Of a DNA stretch of 44,265 nucleotides, positions 1,792 through 23,542 are shown in pieces. The stretch is from positions 1 through 44,265 of IMG/VR virus record IMGVR_UViG_3300020044_006329, one strand, 5' to 3'. The translations under genes were made by a program, and so were the position numbers. Each line of letters opens with the position of its first letter. Position 1 is the stretch's first letter. The notes below the pieces were generated by a model that had not been told where the DNA came from, made no database searches, and saw only the letters and a list, made by a program, of their open reading frames with translations. Source of the DNA: a virus. Its lineage: Duplodnaviria > Caudoviricetes.

Positions 1792-2017
1792 GATTGCTCC
1801 TTGAGTGGCCTATGCCTGTTTCAGTATATAGTCTACCAGACTCAACATACTCAAGTACATCGGATTCTCTGTACCTTACAGCGCCACCAAGACGAATGAA
1901 GCGAGGTCCTCTTCCCTGTAGTCTCCATTTCCTCACGCTGGATATAGAGGCTCCAGTAAGGGTAGCTACCTCTACGTCAAACAGAAGGGGCTTGAGTTTG
2001 TCCTGGGTCTCTTGCAC
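1739..2017 (-). CDS. AlpA/excisionase-like HTH protein
   Basis: EVATLTGASISSVRKWRLQGRGPRFIRLGGAVRYRESDV; GTG 6 nt after a TAGAAT box (leaderless). Confidence 0.88.
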   Translation of the reverse strand: MQETQDKLKPLLFDVEVATLTGASISSVRKWRLQGRGPRFIRLGGAVRYRESDVLEYVESGRLYTETGIGHSRSNRGQFVEQRRSRDSSERD

Positions 2018-2046
2018 AGGTATATTCTAGCGCCAGGAGAATTGGC

Positions 2047-2220
2047 CTAACCCCTGCTCAACTCTCTCCACCAAGCAAGGTCCTTCTTCTTGTGCTCCTG
2101 GGTTGAATCACTCTCTCCCTTGAGGATGGCTCTCCGTTCGGCCAGGAGGGCGTCGAGAGGGTGCCACTTGCGGAACATGTCTGATACAGACCAGGGGTTG
2201 CTTGCTGTTTGCGTAGGCAT
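2047..2220 (-). CDS. small hypothetical protein (57 aa, MPTQTASNPWSVSDMFRKWHPLDALL...)
   Basis: Translated by hand (below ORF-track cutoff); upstream TACAAT box and AAGGA; same strand as the HTH cluster. Confidence 0.55.
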   Translation of the reverse strand: MPTQTASNPWSVSDMFRKWHPLDALLAERRAILKGESDSTQEHKKKDLAWWRELSRG

Positions 2221-2296
2221 AGAGTCTTTGTGCGAGGTCCTTTGATTACATTGTAGCGCCAGACTAACTATAGAATCGATTAGACAATAGGGGGTT

Positions 2297-2677
2297 CTAT
2301 TGGTTTCTCTTCCCTAATCAACAGTATCCAGACTCAAGAGAAACAAGCCTTACTGTATCCATCCCATCCATCAATCAGTCTTAGAGACAGGGATTGAGGG
2401 AGGTTAGGTGATTAGGTGACAAACCAATCTCTTTCAAAACTTTCCCTTCAGTTTCCAAGCTGAACTGCGACCATTCCAAAGTCCGCAGTGCGTCATCTCT
2501 TTGACCTGAAGCACTCCATTTATTCTCCAGGTGAATGCCGAAACATGGTACGAATCGGAACTCGGCGCTGGGCGTTACCCCAACCTTAAGGGAAAGAACT
2601 GTTGGACCGGGAGCTATCTCGATGGCTAATCTGGGTCCTGCAGCCACCACAACGTCTGCCAGATGGGCTTGCGCCTC
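2297..2677 (-). ncRNA. putative large structured non-coding RNA (~380 nt)
   Basis: Downstream of TTGCGC-17-TAGAAT promoter; many nested helices incl. long-range 2440-2448/2588-2596 and 2299-2320/2409-2428; GNRA-type loops; no credible ORF. Confidence 0.55.
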
Positions 2678-2683
2678 ACATCT

Positions 2684-2712
2684 ATTCTATGGCTGACATT
2701 CGTCTGGCGCAA
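2684..2712 (-). promoter_or_regulatory. sigma70-type promoter
   Basis: -35 TTGCGC (2712-2707), 17-nt spacer, -10 TAGAAT (2689-2684). Confidence 0.7.
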
Positions 2713-2725
2713 GAGAAAAGTGCCG

Positions 2726-2843
2726 TGTTATACTCGCCGTGTAGACCGTCCACTCCATCGATGTCCACAACCATCGGGACCTCCTACAACCCTGCGGTGC
2801 AAGCCCCCTCTTTCTTTCAATGGCTAGAGGGGGTTTCGCTTTT
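2726..2843 (+). ncRNA. putative ~100-nt small RNA with extended -10 promoter and terminator
   Basis: TGnTATACT at 2726-2734; hairpin AAGCCCCCTCT/AGAGGGGGTTT (2801-2836) followed by CGCTTTT. Confidence 0.45.
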
Positions 2844-3322
2844 CATGCCCTATTTTCCTTAATGAGCCTCTGTGCTTTGGCGAAGATGATGTTGCGAACA
2901 TAAGCCACGGCGCGGCCAGTATGGTTGATCGCCATGTCGTTTGTTATGCGAATAGTCGTAATCCCGTTCCTCAATAGGGCCGAATCTCGATGATTGTCCC
3001 GCTCGATCTGTTCTGGCGCATTGTGGTAGTCTCCGTCGATCTCAACGCACACGCCAATCGTTGGGAAGTAGAAGTCGAGGATGTATCCAAGAACAACCTC
3101 TTGGCGCAAGAAGGGCCAACTCCTAAGCCTACTTCTTCCCAGGCGATAGGCAAACGCTGCTTCTGCCATAGTGGGTTTCAGGAGTTGCCTTCTGGCTGTT
3201 TCGAACTTCTCTGGCTTAACGCGCTGCCTGAGGTTTTCGATATTGATCAGATTACCAGGGAGATTCTTGGCTCCTGGATTGCGGGGGTTCCCACGGGGGG
3301 TCAGTATTAAATCAATCTCCAT
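2843..3322 (-). CDS. DUF559 / Vsr-like endonuclease domain protein
   Basis: PTMAEAAF...FLRQEVVLGYILDF...VEIDGDYH...RDNHRDSALLRNGITTIRITND. Confidence 0.9.
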   Translation of the reverse strand: MEIDLILTPRGNPRNPGAKNLPGNLINIENLRQRVKPEKFETARRQLLKPTMAEAAFAYRLGRSRLRSWPFLRQEVVLGYILDFYFPTIGVCVEIDGDYHNAPEQIERDNHRDSALLRNGITTIRITNDMAINHTGRAVAYVRNIIFAKAQRLIKENRA

Positions 3323-3378
3323 ACAGAATTATAATTCGAATTCCCCGAGGTTTCTCATCCGCCTCCGAGTTGCCCCTA

Positions 3379-3407
3379 TTGCACAGCATGAACCACAGTA
3401 GTACACT
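3379..3407 (+). promoter_or_regulatory. sigma70-type promoter (leaderless transcript)
   Basis: TTGCAC (3379-3384), 17 nt, TACACT (3402-3407), ATG 6 nt later. Confidence 0.7.
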
Positions 3408-3413
3408 GTGTTC

Positions 3414-3806
3414 ATGCTATATCAGGAATGGATAGACTCCCTTAACCTGTCGGAGTTCATTGCAAACGCAGAGGAACAAGATCCTGGCGCTTACCTGTAT
3501 AGTGATGCGGCGGAGATTATTGGGGTATACCCAGACCTGAACCGCAAGGTCATCATGCGTAAAGAGGCGACCAAGTGGGAGCTTTTCCTTAAGGAAGGGC
3601 GTGTCGCTATGCGACAGACGTGCGCCTCCCCTTGGGGAGATCATCTTGTGCGGTGCGCGGAATACATGTACGGAATGCCGCCTGGAGGGTGGCAGATCAC
3701 CAAAAGGAGCAAGAGTGGAAAGAGACAAGCTGATCCAGCAAGAAGCAGAGAGAAGGTTGAGGCAGAGAGCGAAGAAAGGAGAGAAGATACCAGCCCAGCA
3801 GATTGA
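3414..3806 (+). CDS. hypothetical protein
   Basis: ORF with ATG at 3414 just after a promoter; no family recognised. Confidence 0.65.
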   Translation: MLYQEWIDSLNLSEFIANAEEQDPGAYLYSDAAEIIGVYPDLNRKVIMRKEATKWELFLKEGRVAMRQTCASPWGDHLVRCAEYMYGMPPGGWQITKRSKSGKRQADPARSREKVEAESEERREDTSPAD

Positions 3807-3975
3807 TGTGGCGCTGAAAGAAGAGCGTGATAGAGAGGAGGTAAAGGTGAAAGAGGGAGAGGCTTGGGTGGAATCAATCTCTGGCGCTATAAAGATGTTC
3901 AATGGAGGAAAGCCGTTCCTGTGCAACTATGTGGGGTTTAAGGATGGGAGAAGGACTTTTGAGATCGAGTATTGA
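3715..3975 (+). CDS. hypothetical protein (86 aa, MERDKLIQQEAERRLRQ...)
   Basis: GTG at 3715 with AAGGAG 5 nt upstream, in frame with track ORF 3601..3975. Confidence 0.65.
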   Translation: MERDKLIQQEAERRLRQRAKKGEKIPAQQIDVALKEERDREEVKVKEGEAWVESISGAIKMFNGGKPFLCNYVGFKDGRRTFEIEY

Positions 3976-3987
3976 TATTCTCGGTTT

Positions 3988-4254
3988 ATGAATTTGCCTG
4001 ATCGACCAGTTAACCTTATAACCGAACAGGACTTATCTCGATACACAAAAATCTCCGTGCCGTGCTTGAAGCACTGGAGGAGTATCGGGTACGGGCCGTC
4101 CTATTTGAAGTACAAGGGAAGAATTGTCAGGTATGATTTGCTGGAAGTCTTGAGGTGGGTGGACTCTTGTGTTGTGGAGCCTGGGGAGGAGCCAGGGGAC
4201 GGGATGAGATTGGTTGGAGGGGTTTACGAGATTGTTGTCTATGGAGGCAGGTGA
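3988..4254 (+). CDS. AlpA/excisionase-like HTH protein
   Basis: LITEQDLSRYTKISVPCLKHWRSIGYGPSYLKYKGRIVRYDLLEV. Confidence 0.85.
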   Translation: MNLPDRPVNLITEQDLSRYTKISVPCLKHWRSIGYGPSYLKYKGRIVRYDLLEVLRWVDSCVVEPGEEPGDGMRLVGGVYEIVVYGGR

Positions 4255-4257
4255 GTG

Positions 4258-4354
4258 TGGTAGTATTGAGGTGTTCGGGTAGAACCGACACTCCGAAAGT
4301 CTCCTATTGGTTTGGTGTACAGGGCTTGCCAGTAAACTAGGCATGCCCTTTTTT
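4258..4354 (+). ncRNA. putative ~85-nt small RNA ending in an intrinsic terminator
   Basis: TGnTAGTAT (4258-4266); hairpin GTGTTCGG/CCGACAC; terminator AGGGC-TGCC/GGCA-GCCCT + T6 (4321-4354). Confidence 0.45.
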
Positions 4355-4362
4355 TATCGGCA

Positions 4363-4656
4363 CTACTGGTTGCCGACAGCTTTTTCGACGTTGTACAGTC
4401 TGGCCTTGATGCCGTCTAGTTCGGCGATGTGCCTGTCGTTCGTCACATAGCTTTGCCCGACTCTCGTCATAATGTCGTCTGGCAGCTTGGCTATTTGGAT
4501 CTGGATCTTCGCCATCTCCTGGGTGAAGATTGTCTCTAGGCTTCGGATATTGCTCTCGGATGCAGCGCCATCTTTGTTGTATCGGTTCGTCAGTTGAATA
4601 ATTAGAACAATCGCGGTAATACCGATTGAGATCCAAGAAGTATCCATCAAAGACAT
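4363..4656 (-). CDS. membrane-anchored coiled-coil protein (holin-like)
   Basis: ATG at 4656 after AAGGGAG; N-terminal hydrophobic helix WISIGITAIVLIIQL then coiled coil; TAAAAT box upstream. Confidence 0.6.
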   Translation of the reverse strand: MSLMDTSWISIGITAIVLIIQLTNRYNKDGAASESNIRSLETIFTQEMAKIQIQIAKLPDDIMTRVGQSYVTNDRHIAELDGIKARLYNVEKAVGNQ

Positions 4657-4708
4657 TTCTCCCTTTTTGATTTTACCTTCGTGGCGCTGGGTGGGAGATG
4701 ATGGTGGT

Positions 4709-6250
4709 GTGAATATAAGGAATGTCCTCGCGGGGAAGTACACTCCGCAGCAGATCGACACCATTATCCAGAATGCGAAGAAGCTCCCGTACCACGAGCA
4801 GGTGGAGCTAACGAGCCTGCTTGAAGCGTACGAGAAGCAGTTGAAGGTCCAGGCGTGCCAGACCAAGTTCATAGACTTCGTCAAGGAGATGTGGCCTGCG
4901 TTTATTCCAGGTCGGCACCACGCCATTATGGCGGATGCATTTGAGAGGGTTGCTGAAGGCAAGTGTAAGCGCCTCATCATCAATATGGCACCGCGTCATA
5001 CCAAAAGCGAGTTCAGTTCATATCTTCTACCTGCGTGGTTCTTGGGTAGGTATCCTAGCAAGAAGATCATTCAAACGGCGCACACAGCGGAATTAGCAGT
5101 AGGGTTTGGTAGAAAGGTCAGAAACCTAGTCGGTAGCAGCCATTACCAAACAGTGTTCCCTGGAGTAGCCTTGTCATCAGATTCCAAAGCAGCGGGAAGG
5201 TGGAATACTAATAAGCAGGGTGATTACTTTGCTATCGGCGTAGGCGGCGCTGTGACTGGTAAGGGCGCAGATCTTTTAATCATCGACGATCCACACAGTG
5301 AGCAGGAAGCCGCTATAGCAGCGACAAACCCAGATATCTACGACAGTGTATACGAGTGGTATACGTCTGGCCCTAGGCAGCGTCTTCAGCCTGGAGGGTC
5401 TATTGTAATCGTGATGACGCGCTGGAGTAAGCGTGATCTTTGCGGACAAATTCTTAAGGCGTCAATGCAGCGGGATGGAGTAGACGAGTGGGAGGTAATC
5501 GAGTTTCCTGCCATTATGCCATCCGGCCAGCCGTTGTGGCCTGAGTTTTGGTCCATGGATGAACTCAATAAGATTCGCGCCGAACTGCCTGTCTCTAAGT
5601 GGTCAGCCCAATATCAACAGAACCCGACATCAGAAGAAGGTGCGCTTGTAAAGAGGGACTGGTGGAAGATCTGGGACAAGGAGGAGCCTCCAAACTGCGA
5701 CTACATTATTCAAAGCTGGGACACGGCGCTAACCAAGGGAACCCGCTCGGACTACTCTGCCTGCACGACATGGGGCGTATTCTACGACAGCGACTCTGAC
5801 GGGAAGAAGAGGACGAACATCATCCTACTGAATGCATTCCAGGATAAGCTGGAGTTTCCAGAGTTGAAACAGAAGGCGCTGGAAGAGTACAAGTATTGGA
5901 AGCCTGACTCGTGCATCATCGAAGCAAAGGCTGCTGGCGCTCCACTTGTGTTTGAAATGCGCCGTATGGGCATACCAATACAGGATTACACTCCATCACG
6001 AGGAAACGATAAGATTGCTCGTGTTAATGCTGTAAGCGACATATTTGCCTCTGGGTTTGTCTATGCTCCTCCATTGAGATGGGCGGAGGAGGTTATAGAG
6101 CAGTTTGCCTCTTTTCCTAACTCTGATCACGATGATCTTGTTGACAGTTCTACCCAGGCTCTGTTGAGATTTAGACAGGGCGGTTTTATCTCAACGCAGT
6201 CTGATGAAGATGAAGCGCCAATTTCAAGAAAGAAAGCAGATTACTACTGA
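4709..6250 (+). CDS. terL: terminase large subunit
   Basis: Walker A-like INMAPRHTKSE, Walker B LLIIDDP, nuclease QSWDTA and HDDLVDS; start (GTG 4709) uncertain. Confidence 0.96.
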   Translation: MNIRNVLAGKYTPQQIDTIIQNAKKLPYHEQVELTSLLEAYEKQLKVQACQTKFIDFVKEMWPAFIPGRHHAIMADAFERVAEGKCKRLIINMAPRHTKSEFSSYLLPAWFLGRYPSKKIIQTAHTAELAVGFGRKVRNLVGSSHYQTVFPGVALSSDSKAAGRWNTNKQGDYFAIGVGGAVTGKGADLLIIDDPHSEQEAAIAATNPDIYDSVYEWYTSGPRQRLQPGGSIVIVMTRWSKRDLCGQILKASMQRDGVDEWEVIEFPAIMPSGQPLWPEFWSMDELNKIRAELPVSKWSAQYQQNPTSEEGALVKRDWWKIWDKEEPPNCDYIIQSWDTALTKGTRSDYSACTTWGVFYDSDSDGKKRTNIILLNAFQDKLEFPELKQKALEEYKYWKPDSCIIEAKAAGAPLVFEMRRMGIPIQDYTPSRGNDKIARVNAVSDIFASGFVYAPPLRWAEEVIEQFASFPNSDHDDLVDSSTQALLRFRQGGFISTQSDEDEAPISRKKADYY

Positions 6251-11742: not shown

Positions 11743-12654
11743 ATGGCGATCACTCGTTCACAGATGTTGAAAGAGCTTGTCCCTGGCCTGAACGCCTTGT
11801 TCGGTTTGGAATACGCTCGGTACGGCGAAGAGCATAAGGAGATCTTTGAGATCTCTAGCTCGGAACGCGCCTTTGAAGAAGAAGTGAAGTTGTCTGGCTT
11901 TGGCACTGCCCCGGTTAAATCCGAAGGTGGAGTTATTGCTTACGACAACGCGCAGGAAGCGTATACCTCCCGGTACACGCACGAGACGATTGCTCTCGGC
12001 TTTGCGATTACCGAAGAAGCGATGGAAGACAACCTGTATGTCTCTGTCGCCCAGCGGTACACCAAGGCTCTGGCGCGTGCGTTTGCCAACACTAAGCAAG
12101 TGAAGGGCGCGAACGTGTTGAACAATGCGTTCAATGCTTCCTACACTGGCGGCGACGGCAAGCGGCTTTGCGCCCCGGATCACCCGCTTGTCACTGGCGG
12201 GTCGAACTCCAACCGTCCGACGACTGGCGCTGACCTCAACGAAACCTCGCTTGAGGCTGCGATCATTCAGATCGCCGGGTGGACGGATGAGCGTGGCCTG
12301 CTGATCGCTGCGAAGCCTCGCAAGCTGATCGTCCCGCCTGCTCTGATGTTCGTTGCGGAGCGCCTGTTGAAGTCGGTTCTGCGTACCAGCACGGCTGACA
12401 ACGACATCAACGCCATCTACAACCTGTCGTCGGTGCCGGAAGGCTACACGGTCAACCACTGGTTGACGGACACGAATGCGTGGTTCATGAAGACGGATGT
12501 GCCGAACGGCCTGAAGATGTTCGAGCGCGTCAATCTGAAGACCTCGGCAGAAGGTGACTTCGAGACGGGGAACATGCGGTACAAGGGACGCGAGCGCTAC
12601 AGCCTAGGTTGGTCAGACCCCCTCGGGCTGTACGGATCTCCTGGGGCGTCTTAG
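11743..12654 (+). CDS. major capsid protein (Mu gpT-like)
   Basis: MAITRSQMLKELVPGLNALFGLEY, SSERAFEEE, RYTHETIALGF, KLIVPPAL, GDFETGNMRYK-RERYS-GWSDP; strong SD AAGGAG. Confidence 0.92.
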   Translation: MAITRSQMLKELVPGLNALFGLEYARYGEEHKEIFEISSSERAFEEEVKLSGFGTAPVKSEGGVIAYDNAQEAYTSRYTHETIALGFAITEEAMEDNLYVSVAQRYTKALARAFANTKQVKGANVLNNAFNASYTGGDGKRLCAPDHPLVTGGSNSNRPTTGADLNETSLEAAIIQIAGWTDERGLLIAAKPRKLIVPPALMFVAERLLKSVLRTSTADNDINAIYNLSSVPEGYTVNHWLTDTNAWFMKTDVPNGLKMFERVNLKTSAEGDFETGNMRYKGRERYSLGWSDPLGLYGSPGAS

Positions 12655-12668
12655 GGTATAATGGGGGC

Positions 12669-13589
12669 ATGACCCCCATTACCCGCGAACAAGCAATACA
12701 ACAAGGGCTTCAGCACTACTTCACAGGCAAGCCCTGCCCAAGAGGACACATCGCACTGCGCTTTGTGTCCTCTTTTGGCTGTAAGGAGTGCGCTGTTTAT
12801 TTTGCCAGGGAATACAGATCTTCTGCCCCTACTGACAAGAAGGCTTTAATTCTAGAAAAGAAGAATGAAGCCAGGAGGTCCGTAGCGGTAGAAAAGAAAA
12901 AGATCAAGGATTTCATTGAGAGCGAGAGGAGAAGGTCTGTTCGTGAATTGATGCTATCTATGGGATTGGACCTTCCGTTCTCGAGGTCCGAGGCTAACAA
13001 CTCTGGATCTATGTATTATTTCAATGGAGTCGAGTGTAAAAGAGGGCATTTCGATAAAAGGTTTTCTGATTCAGGGAACTGCTATACCTGCCAAAAAGAG
13101 AACAGCAAAAAGAACAGGCAGAAACCAGAGCAGAGGCCAAAGGTTCTTGCTAGGAAGAAAAGAGACTACTACAAGAACAAGGATAAGAGGCAGGCCGCAT
13201 CTAAGAAGTATGCCCTTCTAAATAAAGAGCGGCTCAAACAGAAGGCCAAGGAATACCAAAAGAAGAACCCTCACATCTATCGCGCCATCGGCTCCTTCCG
13301 TCGCGCCCGTCTCCGCAATGCCACTCCTCCCTGGATCACCCTTCAAATGCGAGAAGATATTAAATCACTTCACGCGCAAGCAGAACTCCTTGAACTTCAA
13401 GCTGGTATACAATTCGATGTAGATCATATTGTCCAACTTGACGGCAAGACAGTCTGTGGACTCCATGTTCCGTGGAACCTCAGGCTCCTGAAGCACTCGG
13501 ACAATATATCCAGACCCAAGCACTTCGTCGATGAACATATCGGCAGGTGTGAGGAACCAATTCAATACAACCTCACTCAGACTGCATAG
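12669..13589 (+). CDS. free-standing HNH (homing) endonuclease with two CxxGH...CxxC zinc modules
   Basis: YFTGKPCPRGH...CKEC and YFNGVECKRGH...CYTC; ATPPW; VDHIVQL...VCGLHVPWNL; ATG 6 nt after TATAAT. Confidence 0.9.
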   Translation: MTPITREQAIQQGLQHYFTGKPCPRGHIALRFVSSFGCKECAVYFAREYRSSAPTDKKALILEKKNEARRSVAVEKKKIKDFIESERRRSVRELMLSMGLDLPFSRSEANNSGSMYYFNGVECKRGHFDKRFSDSGNCYTCQKENSKKNRQKPEQRPKVLARKKRDYYKNKDKRQAASKKYALLNKERLKQKAKEYQKKNPHIYRAIGSFRRARLRNATPPWITLQMREDIKSLHAQAELLELQAGIQFDVDHIVQLDGKTVCGLHVPWNLRLLKHSDNISRPKHFVDEHIGRCEEPIQYNLTQTA

Positions 13590-13638: not shown

Positions 13639-14067
13639 ATGGCTAACACCACTTTTTCCGGCCCGGTACGTTCCGGCACCACCCGTGAAGGCGCTACCAC
13701 CAACCTCGGCCTTTGCGTTCTTTCGCAGACGGCCCTTATGACGCAGAACAGCACGAGCGTAGTTGATGCCACGTTCTACCTGCCTGCCAACGCTCAGATC
13801 CTGAGCTTCAACTTTGATGTCCTGACGGCGTTCAACTCTGCCACCTCTGCTACCCTTTCGGCTGGCACGGCTTCTGGCGGAACTCAGTATGCCAGCAGCG
13901 TTGACGTGAAGACCGCTACGGGACGCATTGCGCCCACGCTGACGGCCACCCAGTTGACGAACATGTCTGACGTGACGACGAACACTACGCTCGTTGTCTC
14001 GATCACTCCTGTTGGCGCTACCTCTGCGGGTTCGGTTCGCGCTACCGTCATCTACGTTCAGAAGTAA
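13639..14067 (+). CDS. virion structural protein (142 aa, MANTTFSGPVRS...)
   Basis: ATG at 13639 after AAGGAG; beta-rich Thr/Ser composition. Confidence 0.75.
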   Translation: MANTTFSGPVRSGTTREGATTNLGLCVLSQTALMTQNSTSVVDATFYLPANAQILSFNFDVLTAFNSATSATLSAGTASGGTQYASSVDVKTATGRIAPTLTATQLTNMSDVTTNTTLVVSITPVGATSAGSVRATVIYVQK

Positions 14068-22451: not shown

Positions 22452-23108
22452 ATGACATACGCTGAACTCAAAGAGCAGATAAAGGATTACGTTCAATCGG
22501 AGGAACCGACATTCCTCGCGAACCTGGATGGCATTATCCAGCTTGCGGAACAGCGTATAAACAGGGACGCAAAGTCACCTGACTCTCGCGCCACCGCGAC
22601 TGGCACCTTTAGTTCTCAGACCATCACCACCCCAACTGACTTTGTGATCCCACTCAGTTTGTTTGTGAGTATTGATGGAATAGAGACTGGCCTTCTTCTC
22701 AAAGACCCCTCTTATCTCACCGAGGCGTATGGTGTGACCTCTGCATCCACTGGGTCCAGCGGCTCACCTGCCTATTACGCGATCCAATCGTCAAGCGATA
22801 CGTCCACGACGATCCTTGTAGCGCCGTCTCCTAGTTCATCGCTTGGGTACACGCTATACTACTACAAGTCTGCTGACACTATTGTTGGCGCTGACACGCA
22901 CACCACATGGGTCAGTAATTACTTCCCGCAGACCTTGCTCTATGGCTGTCTCGTTGAGGCATACACCTTCATGAAGGGCGACCAAGTGATACAGCAGCAG
23001 TACGAAAAACTGTACCAGCTTGGGTTGATGGAACTGAAGACCGTCTGCGAGAATGACCAGCGCATGGACAACTACCGTTATGCTGACAACAAAAGGAACA
23101 TTGGTTAG
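22452..23108 (+). CDS. probable head-tail adaptor/completion protein
   Basis: MTYAELK..I.DY, IQLAEQRI, P-YYA, LLYGCLVEAYTFMKG. Confidence 0.72.
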   Translation: MTYAELKEQIKDYVQSEEPTFLANLDGIIQLAEQRINRDAKSPDSRATATGTFSSQTITTPTDFVIPLSLFVSIDGIETGLLLKDPSYLTEAYGVTSASTGSSGSPAYYAIQSSSDTSTTILVAPSPSSSLGYTLYYYKSADTIVGADTHTTWVSNYFPQTLLYGCLVEAYTFMKGDQVIQQQYEKLYQLGLMELKTVCENDQRMDNYRYADNKRNIG

Positions 23109-23110
23109 CC

Positions 23111-23542
23111 ATGGCATTCACTGGTAGCTATGTAACAAACTCTTTCAAGCAACAGCTTCTTCTGGCTGTCCATGACTTCACCACGGATGTCATTAAGATC
23201 GCCTTGTACTCAAGCTCGGCTACGATTGACAGTTCGACTACCGTTTACAGCACCACGAACGAGATCACCGGGACCGGGTACGTGGCTGGCGGCAAGACCC
23301 TTACCTGCACAGTAACGCTGTCTGGCAACTACGCAATCCTTGATTTTGCTGATGTGAACTGGACCAGTGCCACATTTACTTGTCGTGGCGCTCTCGTCTA
23401 CAACTCTTCAAAATCAAACAAGTCCATCTTTGTGCTGGACTTTGGCACTGACAAGACGGTATCCAGCGGTACCTTCTCTATCCAGTTCCCTGTTGCTGAT
23501 GTGAACAACGCAATCGCTGTGATTAGCTCGGTAACCAACTGA
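23111..23542 (+). CDS. putative tail structural protein
   Basis: SFKQQLL, KIALY, GTGYVAGG, RGALVYN, VLDFG-DK. Confidence 0.72.
   Translation: MAFTGSYVTNSFKQQLLLAVHDFTTDVIKIALYSSSATIDSSTTVYSTTNEITGTGYVAGGKTLTCTVTLSGNYAILDFADVNWTSATFTCRGALVYNSSKSNKSIFVLDFGTDKTVSSGTFSIQFPVADVNNAIAVISSVTN

Follow-up and report, generated by a model that had tools for sequence, protein, structure and literature searches.

What is encoded by the ORF-poor stretch that separates the regulatory genes of an uncultured phage from its packaging genes? The window, i.e. the whole stretch of DNA analysed here, corresponds to a virus record in IMG/VR that comprises 44,265 bases, with a completeness estimate of 72%. Its left end carries a gene for ThyX (280-1116) and a tRNA-Arg(CCT) gene (1123-1198), the sole RNA gene that ARAGORN called in the window. 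Three HTH_17 genes follow on the minus strand (1308-1514, 1528-1791 and 1739-2017), and upstream of them on the same strand lies a small ORF of 57 amino acids (2047..2220). On the other side of the stretch in question, the minus strand carries a DUF559 gene whose product has a Vsr-like endonuclease fold (2843..3322; Pfam PF04480, E 1.5e-14), and the plus strand continues with two small ORFs, the large terminase gene (4667-6250), the portal gene and the structural genes. A first-pass annotation, made from the letters alone, had proposed that the ORF-poor stretch specifies, on the minus strand, a multi-domain non-coding RNA of about 380 nt with a sigma70 promoter of its own. Our analysis bears out a structured RNA of this size, strand and promoter through covariation, G-U pairs and the conservation of the promoter hexamers, and we consider it highly probable that the element represents a genuine family of structured RNAs. 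The RNA heads a leftward block, in which the small ORF, a neighbour only, is followed by the three HTH_17 regulators, and this block stands back to back with the rightward terminase block.

Among cultured phages, the closest large terminase (TerL) is that of phage 023Pt_psg01 (56.6% identity), followed by those of the Pelagibacter phages HTVC027P and HTVC023P (52-53%) and of Synechococcus phage MinM2 (45%). The sequencing runs that contain a third to half of the sampled words of the stretch are mostly lake-water metagenomes (16 DNA runs from seven studies). A tyrosine integrase gene (PF00589, E 9.5e-25) is present in one of four related records, namely in G007 (22889-23374, minus strand), which holds L082, the nearest relative of the window; the window itself, G008 and the complete genome G006 yielded none.

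The element is known from three lineages of uncultured phages, represented by 11 IMG/VR contigs, including the window, and five metagenome contigs: lineage W (the window, L082 and L108), lineage B (L010, L011, L090, L092, L115, L124 and L130) and lineage C (L003, L083, L088, L089, L091 and L121). A combination of blastn and a covariance model, applied to 80 loci around relatives of TerL, located the element in L010, L011, L003 and L082, the last of which is 84% identical to the window in DNA sequence over 2254-4700. IMG/VR was scanned three times for exact motifs, which were taken from another part of the element each time, and all three scans agreed on the same ten contigs; one scan also gave L101, an ORF-dense, G+C-rich stretch that the model did not match and that we regard as a chance motif match. 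Scans of metagenomes and of genome collections contributed a further 28 and eight stretches, respectively, and the model matched five of these 36, all of them metagenomic and from the same three lineages; the 31 stretches without a model match include all eight from prokaryote genomes. Another chance motif match was rejected in L104 and L135, which are identical in sequence and carry an open frame that appears helicase-like by eye. The covariance model detected no element in 78 further TerL-relative loci (63-91% identity; 611,609 bases, E up to 10), and model searches yielded no further homologues in phage 023Pt_psg01 or in five whole records, including L012, nor did the cultured-phage collection hold a DNA match to the element. 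Within what was searched, and with collection scans that needed exact motifs, the spread of the element is narrow. Each of five element-bearing records contains a single copy. In a complete genome with direct terminal repeats, this copy occupies positions 13,732-14,001 of 56,915 and thus lies 13.7 kb from the end, which does not support a role at the genome end.

A core of about 245 nt (2677-2437, minus strand) is conserved in sequence and base pairing across the three lineages. Its identity between lineages amounts to 60-76%, as calculated from substitution counts, and it alone among the intergenic DNA can still be aligned between lineages that share 86-87% identity in TerL. On the minus strand of the window, the core begins with the 5' hairpin P0, GGC-GCAA-GCC (2666..2675), which is present as first described; one of its three pairs is changed on both sides (GC/CG/UA) and 100% of its cells in the alignment are paired. 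P0 is followed by a 5' domain (2621..2665) around the invariant GGCAGACGUUrUGGyGGCUGCA, for which two pairings compete: the hairpin alpha/beta, formed by AUCUGG (2659-2664) with CCAGAU (2629-2634) plus CAG/CUG, and a helix of GGUGGCU (2642-2648) with AGCCAUC (2621-2627). Domain 2 (2440..2596, minus strand) is a multi-helix junction that is closed by P3 (2588-2596 with 2440-2448), contains the invariant stretches AAAGAGAUGACG and CAGCUUGGAAAC, and comprises the helices P5 (2567-2584), inner P6 (2538-2558), P7 (2504-2532) and P8 (2464-2489). Most of the helices drawn in the first-pass annotation, i.e. 2621-2627/2642-2648, 2440-2448/2588-2596, 2567-2584, 2537-2541/2562-2566, 2504-2508/2528-2532 and 2464-2469/2484-2489, recur both in the single-sequence fold and in the comparative models. 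Two others survive in part: the strands 2447-2451/2460-2464 are complementary in the lineage of the window but not in the other lineages, and of helix 2601-2604/2650-2653 only GUU/RAC (3 bp) is kept elsewhere, the remainder being lost.

Folding energy supports the proposal for the whole unit and for domain 3, but not for the core. On the minus strand, the whole 384 nt fold with -128.7 kcal/mol (z -2.24, 1 of 100 shuffles as good; plus strand z -1.77), and domain 3 (z -3.07) is the source of this signal. For the conserved core by itself, z is -0.67, with 43 of 200 shuffles as good, and two relatives gave -1.12 and 0.02. Given that the core folds no better than shuffles, energy alone would not carry the claim of a structured RNA.

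Comparison of the homologues near terL, as the first-pass annotation had recommended, revealed strong covariation. In model A (11 sequences, nine distinct), 97.6% of 510 cells are paired and 19 of 57 pairs are changed on both sides; model B (13 sequences, nine distinct) reaches 97.8% of cells and 18 of 60 pairs. When the models were slid along the alignments, 32.5-45.6% (A) and 32.0-47.0% (B) of the cells were paired, with 1-3 double-changed pairs in each case. None of 500 shuffles reached the score of either model, a control that overstates the significance because the alignments contain only three lineages (effective sequence number 1.2-1.5). Since the alignments were, in addition, fitted to their own model, the slid controls are a fairer measure, and so is the RNAalifold result for four sequences that MAFFT had aligned without any use of structure, in which 13 of 57 pairs are compensated. 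The covariation is carried by helices common to both models, namely P0, P3 (2590-2595 with 2441-2446), P5, inner P6, P7 and P8, and pairs changed on both sides account for 3 of 6 in P3, 3 of 5 in P5, 3 of 8 in P7 and 4 of 7-8 in P8.

Models A and B score alike, and parts of the fold are ambiguous, both in the choice between alpha and its competing helix and in that between the two models. Alpha is fully complementary in each lineage with differing letters (AUCUGG/CCAGAU, UCUCAG/CUGAGA and CCCCAG/CUGGGG). The competing helix GGUGGCU/AGCCAUC displays zero covariation and carries a C-A mismatch in two of the nine distinct sequences. The alignment of model B leaves the alpha strand unshifted for the window and L082, so that four of the six alpha pairs are scored as unpaired; AUCUGG and CCAGAU of these two sequences do pair, one column over. 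In domain 2, the invariant stretches pair as GAGUU with AUUC in model A, and as CCGAGUU with AGCUUGG and CAUUC with GAGAUG in model B. The two pairings exclude each other and lie within 2-4 kcal/mol in all six sequences (6/6). A U-to-C change in lineage C breaks a pair of model A (three unpaired cells, columns 137-165) and improves the corresponding pair of model B from U-G to C-G.

The same pair tables bear on the strand. G-U pairs fill 69 of 510 cells in model A and 72 of 540 in model B (about 13%, as sums over the pair tables), and they fit the minus strand only, because they become C-A mismatches on the plus strand. At the place given by the first-pass annotation, the minus strand also carries a sigma70-type promoter (2684..2712), composed of the -35 hexamer TTGCGC (2707-2712), a 17-nt spacer and the -10 hexamer TAGAAT (2684-2689). 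The -35 hexamer agrees with TTGACA at three of six positions, TTG alone, which is why the promoter is absent from the list of a consensus scan. Nevertheless, the hexamers TTGCGN and TAnnnT are kept at exactly 17 nt spacing in lineages W, B and C, the spacers of which share no sequence. Together, the G-U pairs and the conserved hexamers favour a minus-strand transcript, which is likely to be produced from this conserved promoter, with a predicted start site at about 2677. Four RNA-library runs (X17-X20), all stored as contigs, touch the region. X20 provides one contig of 242 nt on the core (2512-2751, depth 2), which also covers the promoter and, given that it reaches across to 2751, may represent DNA or read-through. 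The contigs of X17 and X18 are probably DNA, and X19 covers only 1927-2077. Neither the start, the end nor the strand of a transcript can be read from any of these contigs. A search for a single-subunit phage RNA polymerase in four records gave no match, in a search whose controls were blank too.

Downstream of the core, domain 3 (2299..2428, minus strand) folds into a long imperfect hairpin, AUUGGUUU...CCUAAUCA with UGAUUAGG...AAACCAAU, as originally described, and its arms (2299-2309/2418-2428) constitute an inverted repeat. In all eight sequences analysed (8/8, from the three lineages), the minimum-energy fold after the core opens with a long closing helix at the homologous place. The letters of this helix differ (GAUAU..GCAUAUA/UAUAUGG..AUAUC and GAAGUA.GCAUA/UAUGG.UACUUC), with paired changes between lineages B and C (GAUAU/AUAUC vs GAAGU/ACUUC). 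The interior of domain 3 allows no alignment between lineages, and the z of the stretch after the core varies from sequence to sequence (-3.07, -0.40, -5.44, -1.87 and +0.54 in five sequences). Directly after the closing helix, all three lineages contain a CCAAnnnAnnCCCnUAUUGnCU block, with a U run behind it in one lineage only; in the window, this conserved 3' block, CCAAUAGAACCCCCUAUUGUCU (2282..2303, minus strand), can form a small hairpin, CAAUAG/CUAUUG. It is a possible 3' boundary of the RNA. Closing helix and 3' block lie at a homologous place in the three lineages, and the unit therefore measures about 400 nt, in line with the first-pass estimate. In the interval up to the next ORF, including 2221-2437, a terminator scan listed no intrinsic terminator. 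The spacer between RNA and ORF is 140-240 nt long and poorly conserved, with a CU-rich tract 40-60 nt past the closing helix in all three lineages. A complementarity between a conserved loop and downstream sequence (UUGGGA/UCCCAA), present in lineages B and C, was not kept in the window when compared by eye and was dropped.

Several further repeats surround the element. Two adjacent inverted-repeat pairs (12 nt, 92% complementary, and 11 nt, 91% complementary), 2256-2280 with 2680-2710, flank the whole RNA unit and thereby mirror the promoter region just 3' of the conserved 3' block. Between the DUF559 stop codon and the RNA promoter lies a G+C-rich inverted repeat of 11 bp (2801-2836, AAGCCCCCTCT/AGAGGGGGTTT), which is followed by a T-rich run on the plus strand and is terminator-like for plus-strand transcripts; the terminator scan did not list it because its loop comprises 14 nt. 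The 13-mer CTGGCGCTAnAAT occurs three times (0.23 expected), at 2024-2036 and 2250-2262 on the minus strand and, with one mismatch, at 3881-3893 on the plus strand. All three copies immediately precede a gene start and have a -10-like hexamer at their end (TACAAT at 2250-2262), and they may be phage-specific promoters. The heptamer CTGGCGC has 36 copies in the whole window against 8.7 expected, a number that 0 of 100 shuffles reached, and 28 of the 36 are on the plus strand; its interpretation as an operator word was dropped because the over-representation extends across the whole window.

Does the element belong to a known class of RNA? Searched with the covariance models of Rfam 15, the whole window yielded tRNA matches only. 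Within region 2000-3000, at E up to 10, all matches stayed below the cut-off (RMST_1 with 19.7 bits vs 40, psbNH with 12.1 vs 45), and the element had no Rfam match in the relatives L010, L003 and L082 either. ARAGORN reported no tmRNA in the window. The initial assessment, which did not recognise the RNA as a tRNA, tmRNA, RNase P, 6S RNA or intron, was thus confirmed in that no Rfam family reaches its gathering score on the element. A full-text literature search retrieved no paper on this RNA, which is no proof of its being unpublished. Judged by its sequence and pairing pattern, the element matches nothing in Rfam 15 and is a real RNA family of a narrow group of freshwater phages.

As to function, we tentatively favour that the RNA acts as a stand-alone, stable non-coding RNA at the head of the leftward early region. 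Host RNA polymerase would start at about 2677 early in infection, and the resulting RNA of about 400 nt would fold into three parts, namely a 5' domain, a junction of five helices whose junction nucleotides are invariant, and a long hairpin that varies. The RNA might be freed from a longer transcript, in which case the long hairpin of domain 3 would be a suitable substrate for a double-strand RNase, or its 3' end might be set by a signal that escaped recognition here, and the molecule would act as RNA by binding a conserved protein or small-molecule partner. We favour this reading because of the size of the element (about 400 nt with 11 or more helices), because domain 3 combines a variable interior with a conserved closing helix, because 140-240 nt of variable spacer precede the next ORF, and because the lineages share no expression platform. 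The fifth reason comes from L012, a relative with a TerL of 86% identity, which lacks this RNA and has an unrelated, ORF-poor stretch of about 800 nt in its place (L012:2610-3360). Both strands of this stretch give strong folds (z -3.2 and -3.7, each from 20 shuffles), and CCAUAAGGGAUACAC occurs in it twice; Rfam yielded no match to it, and none of the loci retrieved contained a relative. The stretch may represent a further structured RNA, and its presence at the same place hints at a locus that exchanges structured RNAs. We also counted the single copy, 13.7 kb from the end of the complete genome, in favour of a stand-alone RNA. Counted against it were the scan that detected no intrinsic terminator before the next ORF, which equally suits a leader, the folding energy of the core, the three of six matching positions in the -35 hexamer, and the frame that is open in two of three lineages.

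The main rival, which we consider somewhat less probable, is that the RNA serves in cis as the 5' leader of the early operon on the left, consisting of the small ORF and the three HTH_17 regulators. Such a leader would respond to a ligand or protein, or act on RNA polymerase in the manner of promoter-proximal antitermination RNAs, to set the transcription or translation that reaches the regulators; it could also be processed to a small immunity-type RNA. The RNA is located 5' of the small ORF and the HTH genes, and is co-oriented with them, in three of three lineages (W, B and C). However, the lineages are syntenic relatives and their shared gene order therefore counts as one observation rather than three. 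A small ORF with the pattern AAWKxWTL..LLAL is common to lineages B (L010:3042-3212, minus strand) and C (L003:897-1025, minus strand), 3' of the RNA in both; six of ten differing codons are synonymous between the two (by-eye count), and the 57-aa ORF of the window resembles them only loosely. The scans found neither terminator nor promoter between RNA and ORF, which agrees with a leader, but in the window this interval holds the 13-mer with the -10-like TACAAT (2250-2262) that recurs before two other genes. Further features in keeping with a leader are the conserved 3' block and the CU-rich tract past the closing helix in the three lineages, as well as the two exclusive pairings of invariant segments, 2-4 kcal/mol apart, which are switch-like. 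Moreover, the closing helix P3 of lineage B has a 3' strand that is able to pair with CCUUCCUUC, followed by a U-rich tail; yet this alternative hairpin, which would compete with P3, is seen in lineage B only, and no shared terminator/antiterminator or other expression platform was found across the three lineages. The 140-240 nt of variable sequence between RNA and ORF, the size of about 400 nt, which is large for a leader, and L012, which keeps an HTH gene without this RNA, likewise argue for the stand-alone RNA over the leader.

A more ambitious reading, which we rate as rather improbable, would make the element a large phage riboregulator of a new class. Here, the RNA of about 400 nt would toggle its invariant junction strands between the two near-isoenergetic folds in response to a host or phage signal and so set the programme of the HTH operon; it might constitute a ligand- or protein-sensing switch, or a ribozyme without known relative.

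The first-pass annotation had also considered that domain 3 could be a DNA cruciform or an origin. As part of an origin, the promoter-driven, structured transcript could activate or prime DNA synthesis, like some plasmid primer RNAs, with domain 3 or the AT-rich repeats of lineage B acting as a region of DNA unwinding or binding. The cumulative GC skew has its minimum at 2001-3000, but this minimum coincides with the switch in gene direction, which alone yields such a minimum. The stretch that follows the core in lineage B is rich in AT, contains repeated TATAGAT/TTAGAT words and folds very strongly (z -5.44), whereas the window shows no AT richness in its domain 3. An exchange of origins and of the DNA around them is common between related phages and would fit the unrelated stretch of L012. 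However, compensating changes and strand-specific G-U pairs point to a folded single strand and not to duplex DNA, and no replication gene adjoins the element in the window. Part in a replication origin is hence improbable to our mind, and the cruciform or origin reading of domain 3 is weakened by strand-specific G-U pairs and a promoter that both fit an RNA.

Could the stretch simply encode a protein, with its structure being incidental? An ORF of 89 amino acids lies within the RNA on the minus strand (2381..2650), and its conservation with a coding signature had been named at the outset as a finding that would speak against an RNA. The frame is open through the core in lineages W and C (0 stops), and the translation of L082 is 83% identical. 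Lineage B, by contrast, interrupts the frame with four stops in four of four sequences, and the lineages differ by indels of 1, 2, 3, 4 and 7 nt, including lengths such as 1, 2 and 7 nt that are no multiple of three. Substitutions are spread evenly over codon positions 1/2/3 (7/5/9, 26/25/26, 29/28/32 and 16/20/20), the ORF of the window has no Pfam family, and the long ORF of lineage C (138 amino acids, L003) reads part of the core in a frame other than that of the window. We thus judge the 89-aa ORF not to be a gene; the protein reading is already largely refuted and has very little probability left.

The proposed partnership with the adjacent DUF559 nuclease did not hold up. The gene adjoins the RNA only in lineage W and is absent from this place in lineages B and C, where the RNA promoter abuts a divergent rightward gene; a relative represented in runs X17 and X18, which diverges from the window at 2816, lacks DUF559 as well. 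On the basis of this gene order, DUF559 is a lineage-specific insertion 5' of the RNA promoter, and we infer a free-standing, homing-type insertion beside a conserved target. Another nuclease match, to the PHROG endonuclease VII (E 7e-25), was obtained for an ORF among the structural genes (12609-13589), and together with DUF559 it suggests several nuclease insertions in the genome of the window. That the RNA serves as guide or cofactor of the DUF559 endonuclease is the least credible of the readings: the two are adjacent in the window and L082, but an obligatory pairing is refuted because lineages B and C carry the RNA without the nuclease, and the gene resembles a homing-type insertion.

To our knowledge, a function has been established for few of the large structured non-coding RNAs of phages, and any new family that is well supported by covariation may harbour new RNA biochemistry, for instance that of a ribozyme, sensor, scaffold or anti-defence decoy. 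The element described here is compact enough for probing and structure work, and it sits between early regulators and packaging genes. With about 400 nt and a very narrow spread, it differs from GOLLD and ROOL, which measure 600-800 nt. Similar to these, it is a large, multi-domain, phage-borne non-coding RNA found by comparative analysis, partly in lake metagenomes; it gave, however, no match to their covariance models even at E up to 10, and the tRNA gene of the window is 1.1 kb away on the other strand. Both GOLLD and ROOL are Rfam families of large ornate RNAs from phages and prophages, and they are the subject of a cryo-EM preprint.

Other comparisons concern the position of the RNA in its transcription unit. 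Like the immunity RNAs P4 CI and P1/P7 c4, it would be the first product of an early or regulatory unit, 5' of regulator genes. P4 CI and c4 are single stem-loops of about 70 nt that are cut from a leader and pair with downstream sites, whereas our element has no Rfam C4 match and no conserved downstream complementarity was established; an integrase, moreover, is present in only one of four related records. The put sequences of phage HK022 also place a structured RNA right behind an early promoter, where it could act in cis on the polymerase. They are built from two short stems, with about 70 nt in total, and each early operon has one of them, i.e. two per genome; in contrast, the element presented here exists in one copy per genome and comprises about 400 nt and 11 or more helices, and thus does not conform to the put type. 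With riboswitch aptamers it has in common that a single helix closes a junction, that the junction nucleotides are invariant, and that it lies 5' of genes, and it differs from them in having no Rfam riboswitch match, no common expression platform and a long, variable distance to the ORF. Even if the element were only a leader, it would still be unusually elaborate for a phage regulatory operon.
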